From: Mobula hypostoma
Lineage: Eukaryota
Reading direction: 5' to 3'
Assembly (NCBI RefSeq): GCF_963921235.1
Contig: NC_086097.1
Location: 62,808,001 to 62,872,000 of the forward strand
Length of the DNA: 64,000 bases
The notes under the pieces are model-generated. The model had not been told where the DNA came from. It did not search any database and worked only from the letters and a program-made list of their open reading frames with translations. Position numbers and translations under genes: made by a program. This document shows, piece after piece, positions 2,942 through 60,480 of this stretch (position 1 is its first letter; every line of letters begins with the position of its first letter).

Positions 2942-4458
2942 TGTAACAGAATCAGTTGGCAATGCTTCTCCCACTAACTTTGACCCTTTGTCTGGTTAGT
3001 CACTCCTCCTCGCTCTGTCCCTGGTCTAGTTTCCCCAGTAGTTCACACACTTTGCCCTCCCATTCTGCAGTTCTTGTGAGTTCAGCATTTATAAACCCCA
3101 ACAATAAAACAATTGCTAGCTTGGCTAATCAAAACAATCCCTTCAAAACATGCTCTACTGGTTTATAACTCATAAAAAATAAAGATTCTAGACACAGACA
3201 TTCCAAACTGTTTCATTTATTTTCACTCACACCGTTACATTGGTTTGTAGACTGCAGAACAGCCCCAAAAGACCCAAGGACAGCTTGGGGCGTCCTAAAA
3301 TAACGCCTGGGTTAGTGGGCAGGCGCAACACACTCTACGCAGGCAACACCACTGGGGGGCATTATACTTTTATATTCATCTGAACATGCAGACACTGATT
3401 TAGACCATAACCATAAGACAAAGGAGCAGAAGTTGGCCATTCGGCCCATCGAGTCTGCTCCGCCATTTTATCATGAGCTGATCCATTCTCCCATTTAGTC
3501 CCACTCCCCTGCCTTCTCACCATAACCTTTGATGCCCTGGCTACTCAGATACCTATCAATCTCTGCCTTAAATACACCCAATGACTTGGCCTCCACTGCT
3601 ACCCGTGGCAACAAATTCCATAGATTCACCACCCTCTGACTAAAAAAATTTCTTTGCATTTCTGTTCTGAATGGGCGCCCTTCAATCCTTAAGTCATGCC
3701 CTCTCATACTAGACTCCCCCATTATGGGAAACAATTTTGCCACATCCACTCTGTTCATGCCTTTCAACATTCGAAATGTTTCTATGAGGTCTCCCTTCAT
3801 TCTTCTAAACTCCAAGGAATACAGTCCAAGAGCGGACAAACGTTCCTCATATGTTAACCCTCTCATTCCCAGAATCATTCTCGTGAATCTTCTCTGTACC
3901 CTCTCCAACGTCAGCACATCTTTTCTTAAATAAGGAAACCAAAACTGCCCACAGTACTCCAAGTGAGGTCTCACCAGTGCCTTATAGAGCCTCAACATCA
4001 CATCCCTGCTCCTATACTCTATTCCTCTAGAAATGAATGTCAACATTGCATTCCCCTTCTTCACTACCGACTCAACCACGAGGTTAACTTTAGGGGCATC
4101 CCGCACGATGACTCCCAAGTCCCGCTGCATCTCCGACCTTTGAATCCTTTCCCCATTTCAATAATAGTCTGCCCATTTATTTTTTCTGCCAAAATGCATA
4201 ACCACATACTTTCCAACATTGTACTTCATTTGCCACTTCTCTGCCCATTCTTCCAATCTATCCAAGTCTCTCTGCAGATTCTCTGTTTTCTCAGCACTAC
4301 CGGCCCCTCCACCTATCTTCGTATCGTCAGCAAACTTAGCAAACTTAGATTTATGGGTATAACTAAGGTATTTGTTGTGGAATAAAACTGTAGGATGTTA
4401 GAATCCTTTTTAAAATGTTCCACTTCTGCATCTGACATAATTGCTACGTCTGGTCACA
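2942..4458 (-). repeat. Complete LTR (minus strand, TGTGAC...GTTACA, ~570 bp after removing the CR1 insert)
   Basis: Minus strand reads GGGGGTGAGGGGGAATCA-TGTGACC at 4458, i.e. a polypurine tract immediately before a TG LTR start, and ends ...TGTTACA at 2942. Confidence 0.7.
3403..4347 (-). mobile_element. CR1-type LINE, 5'-truncated, young; inserted in the left LTR with 6-bp TSD GATTTA
   Basis: ORF 3495-4130 (RLYKALVRPHLEYCGQFW...FFSQRVVNLWN). GATTTA at 3397-3402 and 4348-4353. The LTR alignment to the right arm is continuous once the insert is removed. Confidence 0.95.
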
Positions 4459-4488
4459 TGATTCCCCCTCACCCCCACCCCCCCACAC

Positions 4489-4605
4489 CCCAGGTTGTGC
4501 TTTGGAGAAGCACTGCAAGACTGCAGAAATACAGTCATCTCTCTCCTGTCACCTGGTGACTGAAGACCTGCAGTCTTGGAGTGCTTCTCCAAAGACCAGC
4601 CTGGG
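4489..4605. repeat. 117-nt inverted repeat/hairpin (38-bp arms plus an 8-bp inner stem)
   Basis: 4489-4526 vs reverse complement of 4568-4605: 34/38 identical. Inner CAGTCATC (4532-4539) pairs with GGTGACTG (4555-4562). Confidence 0.9.
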
Positions 4606-4783
4606 CCATCTGATCCCTCAACCAAGTCTTCCAGCAGTACCCCTTTCTCTTCCAGTCCGACTTGGCTGACCAACAATGCAAGCACACACCATTCGCTAAA
4701 AGGACAACAACCCCATCTGGCACCATCCTTACTGAGTGCCAGAGAAGTTGGTGGAACCACTCAAGGTTGAATTGGAGAATTTC
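4590..4783 (+). pseudogene. Gypsy pol remnant (linker immediately upstream of the RT domain)
   Basis: Frameshifted translation LNQVFQQYPFLFQ...AHTIR*KDNNPIWHHPY*VPEKLVEPLKVELE matches the Gypsy pre-RT motif H-x-I-x-L-x-D-xx-PIRQxPYRVP. The W and * at Arg positions are consistent with CpG decay. Confidence 0.7.
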
Positions 4784-5797
4784 AAACAGGGATTCTAACA
4801 CCCTACAGTTTTATTCCACAACAAATGCCTTAGTTAAACTCATAGATTAGTGTCTACATGCTCAGATGAATATAAAAAAAAATGCCCCCCCACCGTAGAG
4901 TTGCCTGTGTAGGGTGTAATGCACCTGCTCCCACTAACCCAGGCATTATTTTAGGACACCCCAAACTGTCCCTCAGGCCTTTTGTGGTTGTTCTGCAGTC
5001 TATAAACTAATGTAATGGTGTGAGTGAAAATAAATGAAACTGTTTGGAATGCCTGTGTCTAGAATCCTTATTTTTATGAGTTATAAACCAGTAGCACCCT
5101 TTATGAGGAGATTGTTTTGATTACTCAAGCTAGCAACTGTTTTACTTCAGGGATGTGTAAATACTGAACTGTCAAGAACTGCAGAATGGGAGGGCAAAGT
5201 GTGTGAACTACTGAGGAAACTAGACCAGGGACAGAGTGAGGAGGAATGACTAACCAGGCAAAGGCATAAGGTTAGTGGGAGAATTAGCATTGCCAACCTG
5301 TTCTGTCACAGTAATCAATGATGTTATAAGGACAGATGTCAAAATTATATTGTTTACAAGTAAGTTTAAACAAAACATTTTTTCTTAATTGCTGTCAGTT
5401 TATCCATTCTATTCTCTATTTTAAATACTTTGGAGCAAGAAATTATGTGAACAATAACCACCAATGTTCTTTCATTCAATTTCAAAAATGATTCCTTAAT
5501 CTTAAAAGTCTTGTAATGGGTTTTGCACTGTTTGCAGAAAGAACCACTGTCTCTAAATCAGTGAATCCAAATGAATCAAGGACCAGTGGAAGCAGACAGA
5601 TCAATTGCCTTTGTTCTTGCCATGAGGTTAAGGAATGAAGGCTGCCATTTGAGACGCTGCTTTTCATTCTCTATTTTGTGAACTACATTTGCTTGGCTGA
5701 ATTAATGTTTTAAAGTAGAGACGATGATGCTCCAGGTAATCTCCTGGACTAGAGATAATTTCCAAATAAGAAGATATTTGTGAGGAGTTCTTTGGTT

Positions 5798-6778
5798 TGT
5801 GACGGGGTCCTGAATTACCCCTATGAACTGTGCTCTTGAAAAGAGAGAGAGAGAGTTATTTAACACCGACATGTTGTTTTGAAAGAGAGAGAGAGAGACG
5901 AAGACTAACTGTTGGACTGTCACTTTAAGGCACTGGAAGTAACTTTTGGATTTCTGCTGAGTTGGGGAGAGAGATGGCACCGAGCAGCTCGTAAGTTGCT
6001 ATGGTAACCGAGCGCAGTTATTTGATGGACAATCAATGTTATGATTTTTTCGGCAGCATGTTGATACTTCCCAAGGACATGGCATGCTTGTATATTTCTT
6101 ACACAGACAGAGAAAGGAGAAGTTATTTGAGTGACAGTTGATGCTCAGCACGGGAAGATAAAATAGAAGGTCAGATGATAGACCCGGAGACACATGTTTT
6201 GGGACACTGAATGAGCTTTGTTGGGCCCACAGAAAAAGTAGGTTTTTGGAGGATTGATCAGGCAGATCGATCAGTGGCTCTTGCAGTGAGAAGGAAAGGG
6301 GTTGACTGGTGGGGAGTTGTCCATGTGTTCACCCTTGTCTGGGGGATAGCTCCACCACAGAAAACCGATCCCCTTTGTTGTGGTCACAGTCAGTGACTTT
6401 TAAAGGGTTTCGAAGGACAATGAGAAGATCAACGGCATCAGCTCACCTGAAGACTCAAATCTCTCCCTCTCTCTCTCTCTCCATCACTACTCAATTCAAT
6501 ACCATGAACTGAACTGAACCGAACTTTACTCATCATCATAAGACTGTATCTTTTTACCCTTAGACTTAAAGAAGCTTGGTTTTTCACATATATTTTCCAC
6601 ACTTACTGATTTACTTACTTATATATATATATAATCATTGCTAATCTGTTTGATTTATCTACAATTATATTACTGTATTGAGTAGTTACTAATAAATATT
6701 ATTAGTTAATAGCAATATGGACTCCAAGGTGTTTTCCATCTCTGCTGGTTGTTTATTCCCGTTACAGGGTACGTGACA
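5798..6778 (+). mobile_element. Solo LTR (981 bp), TG...CA, 4-bp TSD GGTT
   Basis: TGTGACG at 5798 and CGTGACA ending at 6778. GGTT at 5794-5797 and 6779-6782. AATAAA at ~6691 sets the orientation. Confidence 0.9.
5995..6008. promoter_or_regulatory. RFX X-box-like motif GTTGCTATGGTAAC inside the solo LTR
   Basis: Near-palindromic match to the RFX consensus GTTRCCATGGYAAC; function not shown. Confidence 0.4.
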
Positions 6779-10117: not shown

Positions 10118-10345
10118 AACACAATATATTCTGCAGATGCTGGACATCCAAAGCAACACATGAAATGCTGGAGGAATTCAGCAGGTCAGGCAGTATCTAT
10201 GAAGAACAATAAATAGCTGACGTTTTGGGCTGACTTCCTTCATTCAGTCCTGATGAAGGGTCTTGACCTGAAACGTTGATTGTCTATTCCCCTACATAGA
10301 CGCTGCCTGACCTGCTGAGTTTTGCCAGCATTTTGTGTGTTGTTG
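10118..10345. mobile_element. Penelope-derived palindromic mini-element (two inverted pLTR ends)
   Basis: 10153-10247 is an imperfect reverse complement of 10250-10343. Both arms match the 3' end of the Penelope at 14077-14177. Confidence 0.85.
10245..10282 (+). ncRNA. Minimal type I hammerhead ribozyme motif (PLE-associated)
   Basis: CAGTC-CTGATGA-AGGGTCTTGACCT-GAAAC-GTT-GATTG. Helix I CAGUC/GAUUG, intact CUGAUGA and GAAA boxes, helix II GGU/ACC, palindromic ACGU stem III, predicted NUH cleavage after 10277. Confidence 0.75.
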
Positions 10346-13800: not shown

Positions 13801-14177
13801 TCAAACTTCCAGTGATGCCTCCACCCACCCCCCACCCCTTCATTTCCCATCCCCTTGTCCCTCTCTCATGTTATGTCCTTGCCTGCCCATTGCCTCCCTC
13901 TGGTGCTCCTTCCCTGCGCCCCCCCTTTCTTCTTTCTTCCATGGCCTTCTGTCTCTTTTACCAATCAACTTCCTAGCTTTTTGCTTCATCCTTCCCCCTC
14001 CAAGTCTCACCTATCACCTGTCGTTTCTCTCTCCCCTCCCCCCATCTTTCAAATCTACTCCTCAGCGTTTTTTCTACAGACCTGCCGAAGGGTTTCAGCA
14101 CAAAAGGTTGACTGTACTTTATTCAATAGGTGCTGCCTGACCTGCTGAGTTCCTACAGCATTTTGTGTGTATTGCTC
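10815..14177 (+). mobile_element. Near full-length Penelope-like element, Neptune-type (RT + Cys-rich linker + GIY-YIG endonuclease), frameshifted
   Basis: N-terminal HVSFLGTCLRHQLVPHGF. RT motifs GRPIVS, VQSLYT, QTKGVAMGTRMAPSYA, YIDD. Linker GTYPCK..SCP at ~13392. GIY-YIG AIYCVQCSCCGLLYIGETRRRL at ~13515-13580. Decayed hammerhead at 14077-14114. Confidence 0.95.
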
Positions 14178-14529
14178 CTATTTTTAAGTCTTATACTTGT
14201 TCACTAATTTGGTGACTTTAACTCTCTTAAATAAAACTGATTCCCTCTTCCTAACATGTTGCATTTTCTGCCACTCTACTCTTCCTTCTCAGTTACACTA
14301 TTCCTACTCAATCTTGTATGAGGACAACAGCTCTATTAGAAGGCAAAAAATAAGATATAGAACAGAACAGTATTTAATCTATCATCAGTTCCACAAAATA
14401 CTAGGATCACTCTTGAAACATGGTTCTTCAATGTTGATTTAACACACAAACAGGTCTCTCCAATGCCCTCTGGACGAAGGCTAATACAAAGGAATGAATG
14501 GATACTTGTTGCCACTATATCACAGGTGG

Positions 14530-14782
14530 GGAGCCTTTGGTTTAGCAGTTAGTGTAACGCTAGTGCAGCTTCAGCGACCTGGGTTCAGATCTGCTGCTGT
14601 CTGTCTGTAAGCTTGTATGTTTCCCAGTGACTGTATGGCCTTCCTCTGACCGCTCCAGTTTTCTGCCACTTCCTAAAGACAGGTGGACAGGTCGGCTAAT
14701 TGATCACATGGGGGTAATTGGAGGATGTGGTCTCGTTGAACCAGAAGGATCTGTTATTACACTGCATCTCTAAATAAAATAA
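14530..14782 (+). mobile_element. tRNA-derived V-SINE (HE1-like), decayed
   Basis: B-box-like GGGTTCAGATC, V-domain-like 'tgtatgtttcccagtgactgtatggccttcctctgaccgctccagttttctgccacttcctaaagac', CR1-like tail ending in (TAAAA)n. Confidence 0.65.
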
Positions 14783-14789
14783 GATTCTG

Positions 14790-17700
14790 AAATCAATGCA
14801 AAATGAAGTGATGTCCGTTACTGGGCATTAACTCAGCTAATATTTTATGTGCTTCAAGGACCCATATTAACTTACAGCAGCCCATTATCCTGCAGAGCAA
14901 AAAAGGGAAGGCCGGAGCCATCTGCATATGTGGGGATTTCAAGGTGAGCATCAACCCTGTGCTGCGTACTGTGCAGTATCCTCTGCCACGAATAAAAGAC
15001 ATTTTTGCGTCTTTGGCAGGTGGGGAGAGGTTTTCAAAGTTTGACTTGTCGCACGCCTATTTGCAAATGGAGACTGAGGAGTCAAGTAGCAAGTTCCTCA
15101 CAATCCACATTCTCAAGAGACGGTTCCAGTATAATTGTCTCATCTTTGGTGTCGGATCAGCTCCAGCAATTTGGCAAAGAGCAATGGATCAAGTGCTCCA
15201 AGACATCTCAGGAACATAATGTTACATTGATGACATCAGTGTGACTGGAAGAAATGATGGCAAGCGCCTCCAGAACCTTGGTAAAGTGCTCACCAGGCTG
15301 AGTGAGTATAGTCTGCATGCAAAGAGAGACAAACGTGAGTTCTTCAAGAATTAAATCTCATATTGTGGACATGTTTTTGATAAGCATGGCTTACGTAACC
15401 TGCAAGAGAAGACTGAAGCAGTGCTACAGGCAGCCATTCTGGAAAATGTGTCACAACTCCACTCATACTTGGGCCTGGTAAATTACTACCATCAGTTTCT
15501 CCCAAACATTGCTACAGTGCTGCATCCATTTAATGCACTATTACATACAGAAGCAAAGCGGGGATGGTCAGAAAGATGAGAAAAAGCATTCAAGGAAACA
15601 GAGACTAATAACAATAAATGAACTGCTCACCCATTATGACCCATCCCTGCCCATCAAACTAGCGTGCGATACATCCCCTTATGGCATTGGAGCCATTTTG
15701 TCACATATTATGAAAGATGGATCTGAATGTCCAATTGCATTTGCTTCAAGATCACTAACGAGCACAGAACACAACAACACACGGATCGACTGAGAGGCTC
15801 TTAGTCTAGTATGGGGAGTAAAGAAGTTCTACCACTACCTCTATGGACAAAAGTTTACGCTAGTGACAGATCACCAGCCCCTTGTGTCAATTTTCAATTC
15901 CAGGATAGAATTCCATTGATGACTGCTACCTGGTTATGATGTTGGGCGTTATTTTATTGTCGCCAAACAATTGATACTAGAATGTACAATCATCACAGCG
16001 ATATTTGATTCTGCGCTTCCCACTCCCTGGAGTACAAATCAATAGTAAATATTAAACATTTAAATTATAAATCATAAATAGAAAATAGAAAATGGAAAGT
16101 AAGGTAGTGCAAAAAAAACCGAGAGGCAGGTCCGGATATTTGGAGGGTACGGCCCAGATCCGGGTCAGGATCCGTTCAGCAGTCTTATCACAGTTGGAAA
16201 GAAACTGTTCCCAAATCTGGCCGTACGAGTCTTCAAGCTCCTGAGCCTTCTCCCGGAGGGAAGAGGGACGAAAAGTGTGTTGGCTGGGTGGGTCGTGTCC
16301 TTGATTATCTTGGCAGCACTGCTCCGACAGTGTGCGGTGTAGAGTAAGTCCAAGGATGGAAGATTGGTTTGTGTGATGTGCTGTGCCGTGTTCACATAGA
16401 GTTCAAGGGTACTAAACAACACAGCAACACTGATGGCTTGTCACATCTTCCACTACTGGCAACTGAAGAAGAAAAGTCTTCACACAGCATTGGTGGACCA
16501 GTTGCTGGTAACAAATTCTGAAATCCAAATGGAAACAAGGAATGACCTGATATTGTCAAAAGTCTATGAAATCATCATGCAAGCTTGGCCAGCTCTTGGT
16601 AACCCTATTTTTCCGAAGTTTACAGTGAGATGAGACCAACAGTCTGTACATAAAAGAACACTTTGTGGATCTCATGTTGTGGTTCCCTCTAAATTGCGCA
16701 CCAGAGTGTTAGAAAATCTGCATGAAGGACCCCTGGGTACAGTCAAGATGAAGAGTCTCACCCAGAGCTATGTGTGGTGGCTGGGAATAGATGAACAGGT
16801 TGGAAACTTGGCAAAAGCTGTTCGGGAAGCCAAAACGTTCAAAATGCACCCCAAAGTTACTGTTACACCCGTGGGAGTGGCCGTCTTCACCATGGCAAAG
16901 AGTACATATTGACTTTGCTGGACCCCTCGTGGACTCCATGCTTCTGATTGCTGTGGATACTCATTCAAAGTAGCTGGAGGTCATACTAATGAAGTCATCC
17001 ACCTCAGCAAAGACTGTCTCCACTCTGAGGACTATCTTCACCAGAAATGGCTTACCCGAACAAATTGTGAGTGACAACAGACCACAATACAGGTCAGAAG
17101 AATTCCAACTGTTCATGAGGAAAAATGGAATCAGACATTTCAAGTCAGCTCCTCAGCACCCAGAAATGAATGAGTTAGCTGAAAGGTTTATCCAAACATT
17201 CAAGAAGTCATTAAAGCGATGGACAAGGAGGACATTCCTCTACGTCACAAGGTGGGCAACTTCCTTTCTGTGTATCAGAACTCTGTTCATACGACAAGAA
17301 ATCAAACACCTGCAATGCTGTTCATGAGCAGGAATCTGAGATTTCGCACAGACCTCCTGAAACCAGACCTCTGGAGGGAAGTGCAGAAAAAACAGTTCAA
17401 CCAGTTGCCAAGTGAAGCAGCAAGGATCTTTGAGGTTGGACAGGAAGTCCTTGCGTTTGATTACTGAGAAGAAAAGTGGACACAGGGTAGGATAGCTACA
17501 AGAATTGGACCACTGATGTACACAGTTGATGTTGGAGATCATACATGGAGATGTTATGTGGACTAGATACAGGATACTCAACCGAAGAACACACCAGAGT
17601 CGACTGCATCCAACAAGACGGACATATTACAGTCACTGGACTTACTTCCCAGTGATGATGTCACTGACAGCAGCAAGACACCTACCAAACTTGATACCTC

Positions 17701-18075
17701 TCTACAGGTCCAGAACCACTATCCTGAAAGAAACAGAGCACCACCCAAAAGATTGAACCTTTAAATGTGTGAAGTTAGTTATGGACTGTTACTGTGAAAG
17801 CATGTTTATTTGGAATATAGGCTTATGAAAGGGAAATTGAATATTTTGTACATATTTAGTTTTACGTTCCATTAATATAAAGGGGGAGGAAGTGTATTGT
17901 ATGGATCTATTTCTTTTAGAGCAATGAAACCCCCTGCCCTTAGCACTACATATAGATTGGTTGTCTGTGCATGTACATTGTTCTCTCTCTCACCACAATG
18001 TGAATACACCAGTTAAAACAATCCCCCCAAGCATGCTTTCATTTAATCAATATGTAGTTCTGCACAGACACAGCA
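14790..18075 (+). mobile_element. Gypsy LTR retrotransposon, 5'-truncated pol (RT-RNaseH-integrase) with PPT and 3' LTR; inactivated
   Basis: ICGDFKVSINP, FSKFDLSHAY, YIDDI, LACDTSPYGIGA, HPWEWPSSPWQRVHIDFAGP, IVSDN..SAPQHP. PPT AAGGGGGAGGAAG at ~17880-17892. LTR TGTATTGT...ACACAGCA at 17893-18075. Confidence 0.92.
15953..16396 (-). mobile_element. Rex1/Babar-type LINE 3' end inserted in Gypsy RNase H
   Basis: KIIKDTTHPANTLFVPLPSGRRLRSLKTRTARFGNSFFPTVIRLLN. Gypsy pol resumes at IEFKGTKQH. Confidence 0.9.
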
Positions 18076-18398
18076 AGTATGTTCTGCTGTTCTTGCCTGC
18101 CTTGAATTTCTAAAATTATTTTTTGAGTGTGTGTCAATGAGACTAGAGAAATGATTATTCTTTGTTATCAAAGATCAATATGTCTCATTGATATAGTTGT
18201 ACTGAAGTCCTAGATGATATTGTTCTGCATCACAGTCAGCTTTCTCCAACCTTTCATCAGTATTTAACTAATACACAGAAGTCATCTCAATGGGCACAAC
18301 ATCAGTGACTCTGGTGTATTTGACAAGAATCGTGTTTACAGTTCTTTTGCAGAGAACGTTAGATGAATATTCCCAATTACAATGTCTACCTATGGACC

Positions 18399-18587
18399 TG
18401 CTTTCATGCCTTACAAGGCGCAGATCGGAAGTCTGTGTGGGGCGCCACTCCTCACACAGGACACTAGGGCAATATGTGGTTAAGTGCCTTTCTCAAGGAC
18501 ACAAACACGCTGCCACAGCTGAGGCTAGAACTAGCGACCTTCAGGTCACTAGACGAATGCCTTAACCACTTAGCCACGTGCCCAACA
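18399..18587 (-). mobile_element. tRNA-derived SINE with a CORE-like segment
   Basis: A-box TGGCTAAGTGG, B-box-like GTTCTAGCC, 'gtgtccttgagaaaggcacttaacc'. A second copy lies at 22783-23681. Confidence 0.8.
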
Positions 18588-18721
18588 CAATAAACTATAA
18601 ATTTTTTAAACCACTCTCAATTTTCCTGTGAGAACACAATAAAAATAAACTCTAACACTGCAAGATGCTGCAACAGTGACTGTTTGCACTAGTTTATTTG
18701 AATGTGTGTCCAAATTTACAG

Positions 18722-20487: not shown

Positions 20488-21146
20488 TGGGAGAAGATCG
20501 CGGCGCGACACAGCTCGCTGCAGCCACTCCAGTGGTGATGTCTGTTAATTGTCAAGTAGGGTGCCATGCACAATCCTGATTTGATGGAGACAGACGTGAG
20601 GGCATGGAGGAACATCTGGTGAAACTTCTGAAATGCCTGCTTTGCTGCTGCTGCTACTGTGTAGTCCAGAATCTCTGGAAGAGAAGGCCCCGAGTCCTTG
20701 GCTTTGCTTGTTGCTCGGTGGCCAGGGCAGGGTCGAAGCGCTTGGCAGAGGATAGTTCTCGGAGAGGCTGTGTCAGACAGGCTGGTCAGAGGCTCGAAGT
20801 TTTCGGACATACTCAGAGTCCGCTGCAGTCAGGTACTTCCAATGGTGCTGCATCGGCAAGTTGGCGGCACTTGGAGGTTCATGGCAGGGAGAGTTCCTCC
20901 CTTCTGCCGCCTGCATGGGATGGTGAGTCTATCGGGAATTTGAAACTTTTTTTTACCATGCCCATGGTCTGCTCTTTATCAAATTATGGTATTGTTTTGC
21001 ACTGTTGTAACTATAAAATTATGTAGTTTTGTCAGTTTTAGTCTTGGTTTGTCTTGTGTTTTCTTGTGATATCTTTCTAGAGGAATGTTGTATCATTTTT
21101 TTAATGCATGCAATTCTAAATGACAGTAAATGAAACTGAACTGAAA
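20488..21146 (+). mobile_element. ~650-bp non-coding, non-autonomous retroposon (copy 1), (CTGAA)n tail
   Basis: Colinear similarity to 22885-23563 and 55205-55884; interrupts the CR1 RT. Confidence 0.8.
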
Positions 21147-22782: not shown

Positions 22783-23681
22783 CTGTGGGCACATGGCCAA
22801 ATGGTTAAGGTGTTCGTCTAGCGATCTCAAGGTTGTTAGTTCGAGACTCAGCTGTGGCAGCATGTTTGTGTCCTTGAGCAAGGTGGAGGGAGGAGAAGAC
22901 AGCGGCGCGACGCAGCGCACGCGGCCGTTCCGAATGATATCGATATGTGTTAACTAGGGGGCCGTGCACAATCCTGATTTGATGGAGACAGCCATGAGAA
23001 GCACAGAGGAACACCTGGAGAAACTTCTGAAATGCCCGCTTCGCGGCCGCTGCTAATAGGCAATCGAGAATCTCCGGAGGGGAAGGCCCCAGATCCTTAG
23101 CTTTGCCTATTGCCTGTTGCCAGGGCCGGGGTCGAAGCACTCGGCAGAGATGGTGCTCAGTGCTTGGTGTCGGAGAGCTGGTCAGAGGCTCAGAGTTTTC
23201 GGTTGGGCTCGGAGTTTTCGGTTGGTCTCGGAGTCGGACTGTGGTCAGATGCTTCCAGGGTGCTGCATCGGCAAGTTTGCGGCGCTGGAGGTGTTCACCA
23301 TTTGCGTGAGATGATGGGACTTTTGAGAGACTTTGAGACTTTTACCGTGCCCATGGTCTGTTCTTATCAAATTACAGTATTGTTTTTCACTGTTGTAACT
23401 ATATGTTATAATTATGTGGGTTTTGTCAGTTTTTCAGTCCATTTGTCATGTGTTTCTGCGATATCATTCTGGAGAAACATTGTATCATTTCTTAATGCAT
23501 GCATTACTAAATGACAATAAAAAAGGACTGCGTGTCCTCATAATCTAATCTAATCTAATCTAATCACACATTGCTCTAGTGTCTGTGAGAGAGTGGCGCC
23601 CCACACAGACTTCCAATCTGTGCCTTGTAAGGCGTGAAAATGCCCGACGCAGGCCTCTCATGGAGTGAATCGATGTTCCCC
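22783..23681 (+). mobile_element. tRNA-derived SINE inserted in CR1 with 8-bp TSD TGATATCC; itself split by a ~680-bp insert
   Basis: TGATATCC at 22775-22782 and 23682-23689. The two halves match the uninterrupted copy at 18399-18587. Confidence 0.85.
22885..23563 (+). mobile_element. ~650-bp non-autonomous retroposon (copy 2), (CTAAT)n tail
   Basis: 5' GGAGGAGAAGACAGCGGCGCG; 3' TGACAATAAA-AGGACTGCGTGTCCT-(TAATC)n. Confidence 0.85.
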
Positions 23682-55204: not shown

Positions 55205-55884
55205 AGAGGAGGAGAAGATGGCGGCGCCACGCAGCACACGCGGCCGCTCCGGATTGATATCATATTTGTGAAGTAAGATGCCGTGCACAGTCCTGATATT
55301 ATGGAGACAGCCATGAGAAGCACAGAGGATCATCTGGAGAAACTTCTGAAATGCCTGCTTCGCTGCCGCTGCTACTGTGCAATCAAGAATCTCTGGAGTG
55401 GAAGGCCTCAAATCCTCGGCTTTGCCTATTGTCTGTTGCCGGGGCTGGGGTCAAAGTGCTCGGCAGAGATGGTGCTCAGTGCTTGGTGTTGGAGGGCTGG
55501 TCAGAGGCTCGAAGTTTTCGGATGGACTCGGAGTCGGACTGTGGTCAGGTGCTTCCAGGATGCTGCACCGGCAAGTTTGCGACGCTGGAAGCTCATGGCA
55601 GGAAGAATTTTCTTCCTTCTACCGTCTGCGTGGGATGATGGGACTTTCGAGAGACTTTGAGACTTTTTTTTAACGTATCCATGGTCTGTTCTTCTATCAA
55701 ATTACGGTATTGCTTGCACTGTTGTAACTATATGTTATAAGTATGTGGTTTTTGTCAGTTTTTTTTAGTCTTGGTTTGTCTTGTGTTCCTGAGATATCAT
55801 TCTGGAGGAACAAATTGTATCATTTCTTAATGCGTGCTTTATTAAATGACAATAAAAGAGGTCTGCATGTCCTCATAATCTAAT
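55205..55884 (+). mobile_element. ~650-bp non-autonomous retroposon (copy 3) with an intact YY1-like head AAGATGGCGGC
   Basis: Colinear with 22885-23563; AAGATGGCGGC at 55215-55225; TGACAATAAA..CATAATCTAAT end. Confidence 0.85.
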
Positions 55885-57280: not shown

Positions 57281-60200
57281 GAAGAACAGGACCTCAAGGG
57301 TGGCATTCTCAGGATTACTGCCAGTGCTATGTGATAGTGATGGTAAGAATTGGAGGAGATGGCAGTTGAATGCGTGGCTGAGGAGTTGGTGCAGGGAGCA
57401 GGGTTTTAGATTTTTGGATCATTGGGATCTCTTCTGGGGAAGGTGGGACCTGTACAGATTGGATGGGTTGCACCTGAACTCAAGGGGGAGCAATATCCTT
57501 GCAGGTAGGTTTGCTAGCATGGTTCGGGAGGGTTTAAACTAATTTGCAAGGGGGGTGGGACCTGGAGCGATAGAGCAGTGAAAAAAGTGCATGGAATAAA
57601 GCCAGATCTAACATATAGAGAGGCTTTGAGGAAAGAGAAGCAGAATAAACGGTGTAAAGGTAGAAAGGTAGTAAGGCAAAAGGGCTGAAATGTGTGTACC
57701 TCAAAGCAAGAAGCATCAGGAGCAAAGGTGATGAACTGAGAGCTTGGATACATACATGGAATTATGATGTAGTGGCCATCACAGAGACTTGGCTGGCACC
57801 AGGGCAGGAATGGATTCTCAATATTCCTGGATATCAGTGCTTTAAAAGGGATAGAGAGGGCGGAAAAAGGGGAGGTCAGGGATACTATTACAGCTACAGA
57901 AAGGGTAGGTAATGTAGCAGGATCCTCTTTTGAGTCAGTATGGGTGGAAGTCAGGAACAGGGAGCAGTTACTCTACTGGGGGTATTCTATAGGCCCCCTG
58001 GTAGCAGCAGAAATACAGAGATACAGAGGGGCAGATTGGGAGGCAGATTTTGGAGAGGTGCAAAAATAACAGGGTTGTTATCATGGGTGACTTTAACTTC
58101 CCTAATATTGATTGGCACCTGATTAGTTCCAAGGGTTTAGATGGGGCAGAGTTTGTTAAGTGTGTCCAGGACAGATTCCTGTCACAGTATGTGGACAGGC
58201 CAACTAGAGGGAATGCCATACTGGATCTAGTACTAGGTAATGAACCGGGTCAGGTCACAGATCTCTCAGTGGGTGAGCATCTGGGGGACAGTGACCACCG
58301 CTCCCTGGCCTATAGCATTATCATGGAAAAGGATAGAATCAGAGAGGACAGGAAAATTTTTAATTGGGGAAGGGCAAATTATGAGGCTATAAGGCTGGAA
58401 CTAGCGGGTGTGTATTGGGATGATGTTTTTGCAGGGAAATGTGCTGCGGACATGTGGTCGATGTTTAGAGATCTCTTGCAGGATGTTAGGGATAAAATTG
58501 TCCCGGTGAGGAAGGTAAAGAATGGTAGGGTGAAGGAACCATGGGTGACAAGTGAGGTGAAAAATCTAGTCAGGTGGAAGAAGGCAGCATACATGAGGTT
58601 TAGGAAACAAGGATCAGATGGGTCTATTGAGAAATATAGGGAAGCAAGAAAGGAGCTTAAGAAGGGGCTGAGAAGAGCAAGAAGGGGGCATGAGAAGGCC
58701 TTGGCGAGTAGGATAAAGGAAAACCCCAAGGCATTCTTCAATTATGTGAAGAACAAAAGGGTGACAGGAGTGAAGGTAGGACTGATTAGAGATAAAGGTT
58801 GGAAGATGTGCCTGGAGGCTGTGGAAGTGAGCGAGGTCCTCAATGAATACTTCTGTTCGGTATTCACCAATGAGAGGGAACTTGGTGATGGTGAGGACAA
58901 TGTGAGTGAGGTTGATGTTCTGGAGCATGTTGATATTAAGGGAGAGAAGGTGTTGGAGTTGTTAAAACACATTAGGACAGATAAGTCCCCGGGGCCTGAC
59001 GGAATATTCCCCAGGCTGCTCCATGAGGCAAGGGAAGAGATTGCTGAGCCTCTGGCTAGGATCTTTATGTCCTCGTTGTCCACGGGAATGGTACCGGAGG
59101 ATTGGAGGGAGGTGAATTATAGACCAGTGAGCCTTAAGTCTGTGGTGAGAAAGCTGTTGGAAAAGATTCTTAGAGATAGGATCTATAGGCATTTAGAGAA
59201 TCATGGTCTGATCAGGGACAGTCAGCATGGCTTTGTGAAGGGTAGATCATATCTAACAAGCCTGATAGAGTTCTTTGAGGAGGTGACCAGACATATAGAT
59301 GAGGGTAGTGCAGTGGATGTGATCTATATGGATTTTAGTAAGGCATTTGACAAGATTCCACACGGCAGGCCTATTCAGAAAGTCAGAAGGCATGGGATCC
59401 AGGGAAGTTTGGCCAGGTGGATTCAGAATTGGCTTGCCTGCGGAAGGCAGAGGGTCGTGGTGGAGGGAGTGCATTCAGATCGGAGGATTGTGACTAGTGG
59501 TGTCCCACAAGCATCTGGTCTGGGACCTCTACTTTTCGTGATTTTTATTAAGAACCTGGATGTGGGGGTAGAGGGGTGGGTTGGCAAGTTTGCAGACGAC
59601 ACAGAGGTTGGTGGTGTTGTAGATAATGTAGAGGATTGTCAAAGATTGCAGAGAGACATTGATAGGATGCAGAAGTGGGCTGAGAAGTGGCAGATGGAGT
59701 TCAAATCGGAGAAGTGTGAGGTGGTACACTTTGGAAGGACAAACTCCAAGGCAGAGTACAAAGTAAATGGCAGGATACTTGGTAGTGTGGAGGAGCAGAG
59801 GGATCTGGGGGTGCATGTCCACAGATCCCTGAAAGTTGCCTCACAGGTGGATAGGGTAGTTAAGAAAGCTTATGGGGTATTAGCTTTCATAAGTCGAGGG
59901 ATAGAGTTTAAGAGTCGCAATGTAATCATGCAGCTCTATAAAACTCTGGTTAGGCTACAATTGGAGTACTGTGTCCAGTTCTGGTCGCCTCACTATAGGA
60001 AGGATGTGGAAGCATTGGAAAGGGTACAGAGGAGATTTACCAGGATGCTGCCTGGTTTAGAGAGTATGCATTATGATCAGAGATTAAGGGAGCTAGGGCT
60101 TTACTCTTTGGAGAGAAGGAGGATGAGAGGAGATATGATAGAGTTGTACAAGATAATAAGAGGAATAGATAGAGTGGATAGCCAGCGCCTCTTCCCCAGG

Positions 60201-60480
60201 GCACCGCTGCTCAATACAAGAGGACATGGCTTTAAGGTAAGGGGTGGGAAGTTCAAGGGGGACATTAGAGGAAGGTTTTTTACTCAGAGAGTGGTTGGTG
60301 CGTAGAATGTACTGCCTGAGTCAGTGGTGGAGGCAGATACACTCGTGAAGTATAAGAGACTACTAGACAGGTATATGGAGGAATTTAATGTGGGGGTTAT
60401 ACGGGAGGCAGGGTTTGAGGGTCGGCACAACATTGTGAGCCGAAGGGCCTGTAATGTGCTGTACTATTCTATTCTATTCT
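57281..60480 (+). mobile_element. CR1 LINE, 5'-truncated in ORF1, young; 5-bp TSD AGATT
   Basis: ORF1 end (LNAWLRSWC..DGLHLN), ORF2 EN-RT, (CTATT)n tail. AGATT at 57276-57280 and 60481-60485. Confidence 0.97.
58050..60305 (+). pseudogene. CR1 ORF2 (endonuclease C-half + reverse transcriptase), 751-aa open stretch; 5' frameshifts, internal deletion and premature stop
   Basis: GDFNFPNIDW, GDSDH, KSPGPDG, YMDFSKAFD, KFADD. The stop at 60303-60305 replaces the conserved W of VVGAWN. Confidence 0.9.

Follow-up and report, generated by a model that had tools for sequence, protein, structure and literature searches.

Positions 2942-5310 of the window, the whole 64-kb stretch of DNA that was analysed, carry two copies of one LTR in inverted, not direct, orientation on either side of a hairpin. 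The inverted structure is real; it is ancient, confined to a single locus, and dead, having undergone no later multiplication. The copy is a derivative of an LTR element, not a canonical LTR retrotransposon. The origin that we favour, at a probability of about one half, is a single old foldback of the 3' half of a Gypsy-type element, likely in the course of reverse transcription; the product would have been inserted through two U5-type ends and then trimmed by deletion.

Layout of the inverted element

The element starts with TGTAAC at 2942 and terminates with GTCACA at 5310, both termini having the form TGTNR (TGTAA at 2942, TGTGA at 5310 on the minus strand). The left LTR copy lies on the minus strand, runs from TGTGAC at 4458 to 2942 and measures 566 nt once a LINE insert is excluded; the insert divides it into an outer part, 2942-3402 (3', putative R-U5), and an inner part, 4348-4458 (5', putative U3). 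Directly before the LTR start, on the same strand, is a polypurine tract (4459-4488) with 24 purines in 30 positions. Next comes a 117-nt hairpin, 4489-4605, whose left arm (4489-4537, minus strand) is an inverted copy, seen at this locus only, of 4557-4605: 41 of the 49 positions pair across a 19-nt loop (4538-4556) that marks the fold point, and as DNA the sequence folds with z = -8.8, none of 200 shuffles folding equally well. The plus-strand internal piece, 4557-4768, is made up of the right inner arm and 163 nt more, and abuts the right LTR copy (4769-5310, plus strand, ending GTCACA), which is without the purine tract and its own first ~32 nt; other family copies have those ~32 nt. The LTR start TGTGAC and the right end GTCACA are perfect 6-bp inverted repeats. 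The earlier note had described a complete minus-strand LTR preceded by its polypurine tract, the 117-nt hairpin, a second, slightly 5'-truncated LTR on the plus strand and ~540-bp inverted repeats with TGT...ACA ends, and all of these hold.

Identity is 84.7% between the outer arms (2942-3402 against 5310-4843; 470 columns, E 6e-145) and 86% between the inner LTR blocks (4349-4426 against 4847-4769; 79 columns). Gap-free identity is ~87%; the K2P distance is 0.146 for the outer blocks, 0.142 for the 4349-4426 block and, on 49 bp only, 0.184 for the hairpin block. Without the LINE the unit is ~1.4 kb long, with arms of ~540 bp that form terminal inverted repeats (TIRs) without coding capacity; no second copy of the arms was found elsewhere in the 64-kb window. 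A different inverted repeat, of 90 nt with a 9-nt spacer and 71% complementary, lies at 10154-10342 and is built of a repeat present elsewhere in the window.

In the right LTR a TATA-like site at 4871 and AATAAA at 5029 occur in the expected order, and from this order together with the purine tract at the inner end we infer that the outer ends are U5. The earlier note had called both outer ends U5: 5310 is the family terminus, and the U5 identity stays at the level of this deduction, no primer-binding site having been seen at the locus and the loose ends at 5310, of which 24 of 754 were listed, having shown no predominant sequence. A candidate tRNA primer site at 4554 was dropped, as its 7 leading nucleotides alone resemble a primer site and no joint from 5310 to 4554 occurs among the 15 of 102 listed. 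ARAGORN found no tRNA, and a search of the hairpin against Rfam gave four microRNA-type matches, each far under the gathering score.

The insert in the left LTR, at 3403-4347 on the minus strand, is a 5'-truncated non-LTR retrotransposon (LINE), presumably a CR1, bordered by a 6-bp target duplication (3397-3402 and 4348-4353). It gives 66-75% matches to copies in the window and is 68% alike over 407 nt to the open reading frame at 58005-60302, which has RVT_1 and endonuclease domains. It inserted into the left LTR after the inverted structure arose. The LINE frame itself (58005-60305, plus strand; 766 codons, endonuclease and RT domains) is the longest ORF in the window.

No target-site duplication of 4-6 bp is demonstrable in the flanks of 2942-5310, whose direct comparison matches at 0 of 4, 3 of 5 and 4 of 6 letters. 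At 13% decay, likelihoods for a duplication versus chance are 0.0003 vs 0.25 for 4 bp, 0.11 vs 0.12 for 5 bp and 0.15 vs 0.05 for 6 bp: a 4-bp duplication, at the short end of the range proposed for this search by the earlier note, is very unlikely and is set aside, and at 5 or 6 bp the figures are near chance or above. The available part of PMC11117352 gives no target-duplication lengths. The two flanks resemble each other in inverted form across ~16 nt; this was rejected as not significant, 124 of up to 2000 random pairs (~6%) having reached the score. Some 490 bp to the right of the element lies a solo LTR of another family (5798-6778), with TGTGAC...GTGACA ends and a perfect 4-bp target duplication, GGTT. 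Three dispersed copies of a ~660-bp repeat (20490-21133, 22889-23549 and 55208-55884), 73-82% alike and with no Pfam match in the ORFs scanned, are possibly solo LTRs of a further family.

A dispersed family and one inverted locus

Contigs from four public runs (X1, X5, X9 and X10, of organisms A-D; chosen from 24 runs) were placed on 4330-5530 at 80% likeness, a range that covers the right end and the inner junctions, the left outer end at 2942 lying outside it. Between 934 and 1158 contigs were placed per run, chiefly on the LTR; X1 may be the source sample. Summed contig depth does not equal copy number and is therefore used here solely as a contrast. Depth on the LTR runs from hundreds to thousands (528-1689 at 4371-4411, in the left inner part), and on the unique right flank it is 8.85, 4.0, 13.5 and 0 in X1, X5, X9 and X10. 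At 5310 contigs leave for unrelated flanks (56, 51, 38 and 37 per run, with agreement of 0.34-0.39), and because they diverge there 5310 is the family's 3' end. Fifteen X1 contigs with loose ends before 4769 continue into sequence like the start of the left arm (4456-4427), and eight X10 contigs extend from the LTR start into a similar purine tract, so ordinary family copies carry the full LTR and the tract; depth over the tract, at 4453-4493, is 305, 29, 830 and 8. The arms belong to a high-copy LTR family: its end repeat has the form TG...CA (TGTGAC...GTCACA) and is dispersed in many copies among unrelated flanks. All four runs share loose ends (at 4900-4902 and 5094) and indels (at 4877-4894 and 5095-5103), which point to several LTR subfamilies. 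Exact LTR motifs gave 0 matches in metagenome and viral contigs.

The inverted form presents a different picture. Depth on the left inner arm, at 4494-4534, is 10.6, 8.69, 9.16 and 0 in the same order of runs, or 1.2, 2.2 and 0.7 times that of the unique flank in X1, X5 and X9, as against ~125-1050 times for the two LTR bins computed; total depth at 4515-4527 is 7.7, 4.56, 11.7 and 0, the X9 value coming from one contig. A further copy folded at this point would raise the depth over 4494-4534, and no such rise is seen, so the reading of the locus as a multi-copy MITE-like element, put forward in the earlier note, is unsupported. In place of the many dispersed copies of one structure that define a MITE, the inverted inner arm stands at single-locus depth in three of the four runs and at zero in the fourth. 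The earlier note had itself held that a single inverted locus would speak against its reading, and one locus only is what these contigs show. In X10 depth is zero on both the unique flank and the left inner arm, with 934 contigs placed, so that the locus is unseen in this run and not proven absent. One strand-changing joint occurs among the 15 of 102 listed (5018 to 5177, in one X9 contig), away from the fold point. Contig assembly loses rare variants and may break where a hairpin is young and perfect; of 4357 pieces, 32 were listed.

The junction at 4768/4769 is bridged by X1 record 1 (4565-4819, 0 differences) and X5 record 16 (4563-4824, 6 differences); organisms A and B also have cover on the left inner arm. 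Since two organisms bridge it, an assembly artefact is excluded for the inner junction. The right end and flank differ at 4 of 248 letters in X5 and 25 of 248 in X9, on pieces with 28 letters on the LTR side, below the 31-letter bar for a counted bridge; this is a strong hint that the right end is shared with organism C (X9). An event older than a split of ~10% is compatible with arms 14-15% apart. The inverted structure is present once in each related genome showing it.

Origin of the inverted form

The internal piece is repeated sequence: depth is 123-325 over 4576-4616 and 12-68 over 4617-4739, in line with a family that has more LTRs than interiors. Within 4535-4575, the rise to multi-copy depth seems to start close to 4557 and not at 4538. 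As 4557-4768 is joined to the LTR in both halves, it is probably internal to the LTR element, and the mechanism proposed below needs just this internal origin in the same element, not pol identity; no listed contig joins the internal piece to the LTR in an ordinary copy.

The earlier note had named the piece a Gypsy pol remnant. By eye 4557-4790 resembles the stretch just upstream of the Gypsy RT core, with a likeness, as we take it, to Gmr1-type elements. Protein search gave no candidate for its pol identity, and a second candidate test gave 0 of 20; against 1.84 billion protein representatives there were three matches, all repetitive and unrelated, and against Pfam and PDB there were none. 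Five ORFs from 4161-4847 matched no Pfam family, and no integrase, transposase or tyrosine recombinase was found in them; of the 593 metagenome matches to a pol-like pattern, not one was confirmed. Nor did the piece match the Gypsy pol that the window itself contains near 14000-18600 (best E 0.35). A profile was built from those 79 of 120 K02A2.6-like proteins that have the region, fetched with the window's decayed Gypsy RT as query and possibly of the wrong subclade: its best domain in the piece scored -0.6 bits, with controls reaching 3.9 (shuffles) and 4.9 (random stretches). Two matches, both sub-threshold, lay collinearly on the profile, at 77-91 and 98-133, in the part that immediately precedes the RT core. 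The frameshift-aware comparison gave 28.3, a value attained by 15 shuffles and 10 random stretches out of 150 each; for the positive control it gave 136.5. The pol label is thus plausible and unproven: the piece is repeated and pol-like by eye, and no protein test rose above its controls. A decayed remnant of Gypsy pol that includes RT, RNase H and integrase domains lies at ~14800-17760 on the plus strand, with up to 79% identity over part of RT to fish K02A2.6-like proteins.

The sequence of events that we favour begins with a growing minus strand that would have snapped back at 4538-4556 and gone on to copy the interior, the purine tract and the LTR; the resulting palindrome would carry a CA end of U5 type at each extremity. 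Two U5 ends would suffice for integrase; with a second strand made by strand displacement, the family integrase could have inserted the unit through them, and each half would subsequently have lost most of its internal sequence by separate deletion.

Several features are consistent with this course. The two halves begin 19 nt from each other at one and the same internal position, and the three paired blocks are similarly diverged, as expected if they were born identical together; a one-step foldback would account for both observations. The outer ends both fall on the family's 3' terminus, the left one by mirror position, which would be expected if the retrotransposition machinery made them. 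The snap-back or template-switch origin from an LTR element that the earlier note proposed is in keeping with this, the mirror centre lying inside the internal piece and the outer ends on the family's terminus. The left half retains the purine tract and the LTR start, the right half 163 nt more of internal sequence: since each keeps something absent from the other, neither half in its present form copies the other, and one deletion or more postdates the fold. The onset of multi-copy depth near 4557 hints that the 19-nt loop is what naturally lies upstream of the left (minus-strand) half; the right half would then be the one folded back. At the deletion border, 4769-4790, 6 of 23 positions differ vs 4 of 51 (P = 0.06), and a homeology-driven deletion is only suggested.

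Minority letters offer a weak hint that one template may have served both arms: of 10 sites at which most contigs differ from the right arm, the left arm agrees with the right arm at 3, where 0.67 would be expected (P ~0.02), the ten being the LTR sites at 4840-5236 among 40 of 352 differences listed and the expectation depth-weighted. At the other 7 of the 10 informative sites the letters are unshared, and the likeness between the arms (87%) does not clearly exceed that of the right arm to the five long X1 family contigs listed (81-87%). The extra steps demanded, the opening of the hairpin and two deletions, count against the foldback route. Errors of template in reverse transcription that yield integrated complex elements are known for direct-repeat forms (available part of PMC1950507), and HIV-1 integrase, assayed on mimics of the U5 end, joins two oligonucleotide ends in concert (PMC4005685, likewise in part). 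The outer ends of the present element may be of the integrase-competent, U5 type; with no target-site duplication demonstrable, this competence is something we infer.

The same mirror centre, and arms identical at birth, would also result if an element already inserted in the chromosome had broken internally, its end had folded back and copied through the 3' LTR, and the new strand had rejoined at the 5' LTR start through the terminal inverted repeat TGTGAC...GTCACA. The 6-bp inverted repeats at the LTR start and the right end suffice for a microhomology join exactly at the terminus, and inverted Ty1-Ty1 fusions do arise in yeast through chromosome breakage (PMC3102749, part available). This course would, however, require kilobases of repair synthesis followed by a precise return on 6-10 bp, and the flanks are not inverted duplicates beyond chance (the 124 of up to 2000 random pairs given above). 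We consider it unlikely, and at this age hard to separate from a foldback in reverse transcription. Quite unlikely, too, is an origin in two separate, oppositely oriented insertions of one family, either adjacent or nested, that were joined later by deletion: it would agree with the want of a clear target duplication, with arms about as distant from each other as from other family copies and with a separate deletion in each half, and it is near to the route proposed for Ginger1 in the available text of Bao et al. (PMC2836005), but the two copies would need to have been cut by the deletion less than 20 nt apart, within 19 nt of one internal position, the arms share 3 of 10 minority letters (P ~0.02), and the family has no other copy in the 64-kb window.

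The TGT...ACA ends and long TIRs are also what a multi-copy, non-autonomous TIR element derived from an LTR and moved again by integrase would show. Siblings of such an element might escape contigs, which lose rare variants, may break at young perfect hairpins and were seen here through 15 of the 102 joints, 24 of the 754 loose ends and 32 of the 4357 pieces; yet no extra depth appears at 4494-4534 in any of the four runs, X10 having zero with 934 contigs, and we give this reading little credence. Equally doubtful is its combination with the favoured origin, in which a foldback cDNA with two U5 ends, inserted by integrase, would have gone on to act as a TIR element, its few siblings, either diverged or hairpin-collapsed, being missed by the contigs. 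That the locus is a Ginger DNA transposon or a DIRS element, and no LTR derivative at all, is highly improbable in spite of its TGT termini and inverted terminal repeats: the arms are the end repeat of a family with a purine tract that is mostly found without the mirror centre, they are twice the longest Ginger1 TIR (40-270 bp) and adjoin no CCGG or CCGT target (PMC2836005, part available), there is no internal complementary region (best match 9 nt), and the ORFs scanned hold no transposase or recombinase. An assembly artefact, finally, is barely conceivable. Among the contigs listed none spans the whole stretch, but the arms differ by 13%, the LINE is in one of them alone and 4768/4769 is bridged in organisms A and B, so the earlier note was right to doubt a palindrome made in assembly.

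Relation to known systems

Among the systems compared, the element has a counterpart in the complex LTR-retrotransposon insertions of Sabot and Schulman (2007; PMC1950507, available in part), which are also malformed cDNAs of an ordinary family, inserted in one piece as a rare by-product. Those insertions have three LTRs and clear target duplications, whereas the present element has two LTR copies, opposed across a hairpin, and no demonstrable target duplication; inversion is not mentioned in the available parts of that paper or of bioRxiv 10.1101/452573. In the yeast Ty1-Ty1 fusions produced by breakage-fusion-bridge cycles (PMC3102749, in part), as here, two inverted copies of one LTR element are fused centrally, but there chromosome flanks are duplicated on both sides, and here the flanks are not inverted copies beyond chance. 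DIRS-1 (PMC7192593, in part) is likewise a retroelement with inverted terminal repeats; the present element differs from it in having LTR-type ends and a purine tract, no internal complementary region (best matches 7-9 nt) and no tyrosine recombinase in the ORFs scanned. Our literature search, outside which most subscription papers lay, found no description of U5/U5 inverted-LTR foldback insertions.

Ginger1 elements, as described in the available text of Bao et al. (2010; PMC2836005), are 2.6-7 kb long with TIRs of 40-270 bp and a 4-bp target, CCGG or CCGT, and Ginger2/Tdd TIRs reach ~300 bp; the Ginger1 TIRs possibly derive from two LTRs in opposite orientation, by way of a second inserted element. 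Shared with the present locus are the TGT termini and TIRs from two opposed LTRs. Unlike Ginger1, the unit here is ~1.4 kb, its TIRs are ~540 bp, no integrase was found between the arms, there is no CCGG/CCGT target, and there is one locus; foldback fits it better than the second-insertion route of that paper. If the unit did behave as a TIR element with siblings, it would be a natural intermediate of a Ginger1-type conversion from LTR to TIR, reached by snap-back and not by a second insertion. Because the copy is single and old and no integrase was found, it shows the raw material for that conversion rather than the conversion itself: the locus is a readable fossil of an LTR element turned into a unit with TGT...ACA TIRs, the geometry that has been proposed for the origin of Ginger1.
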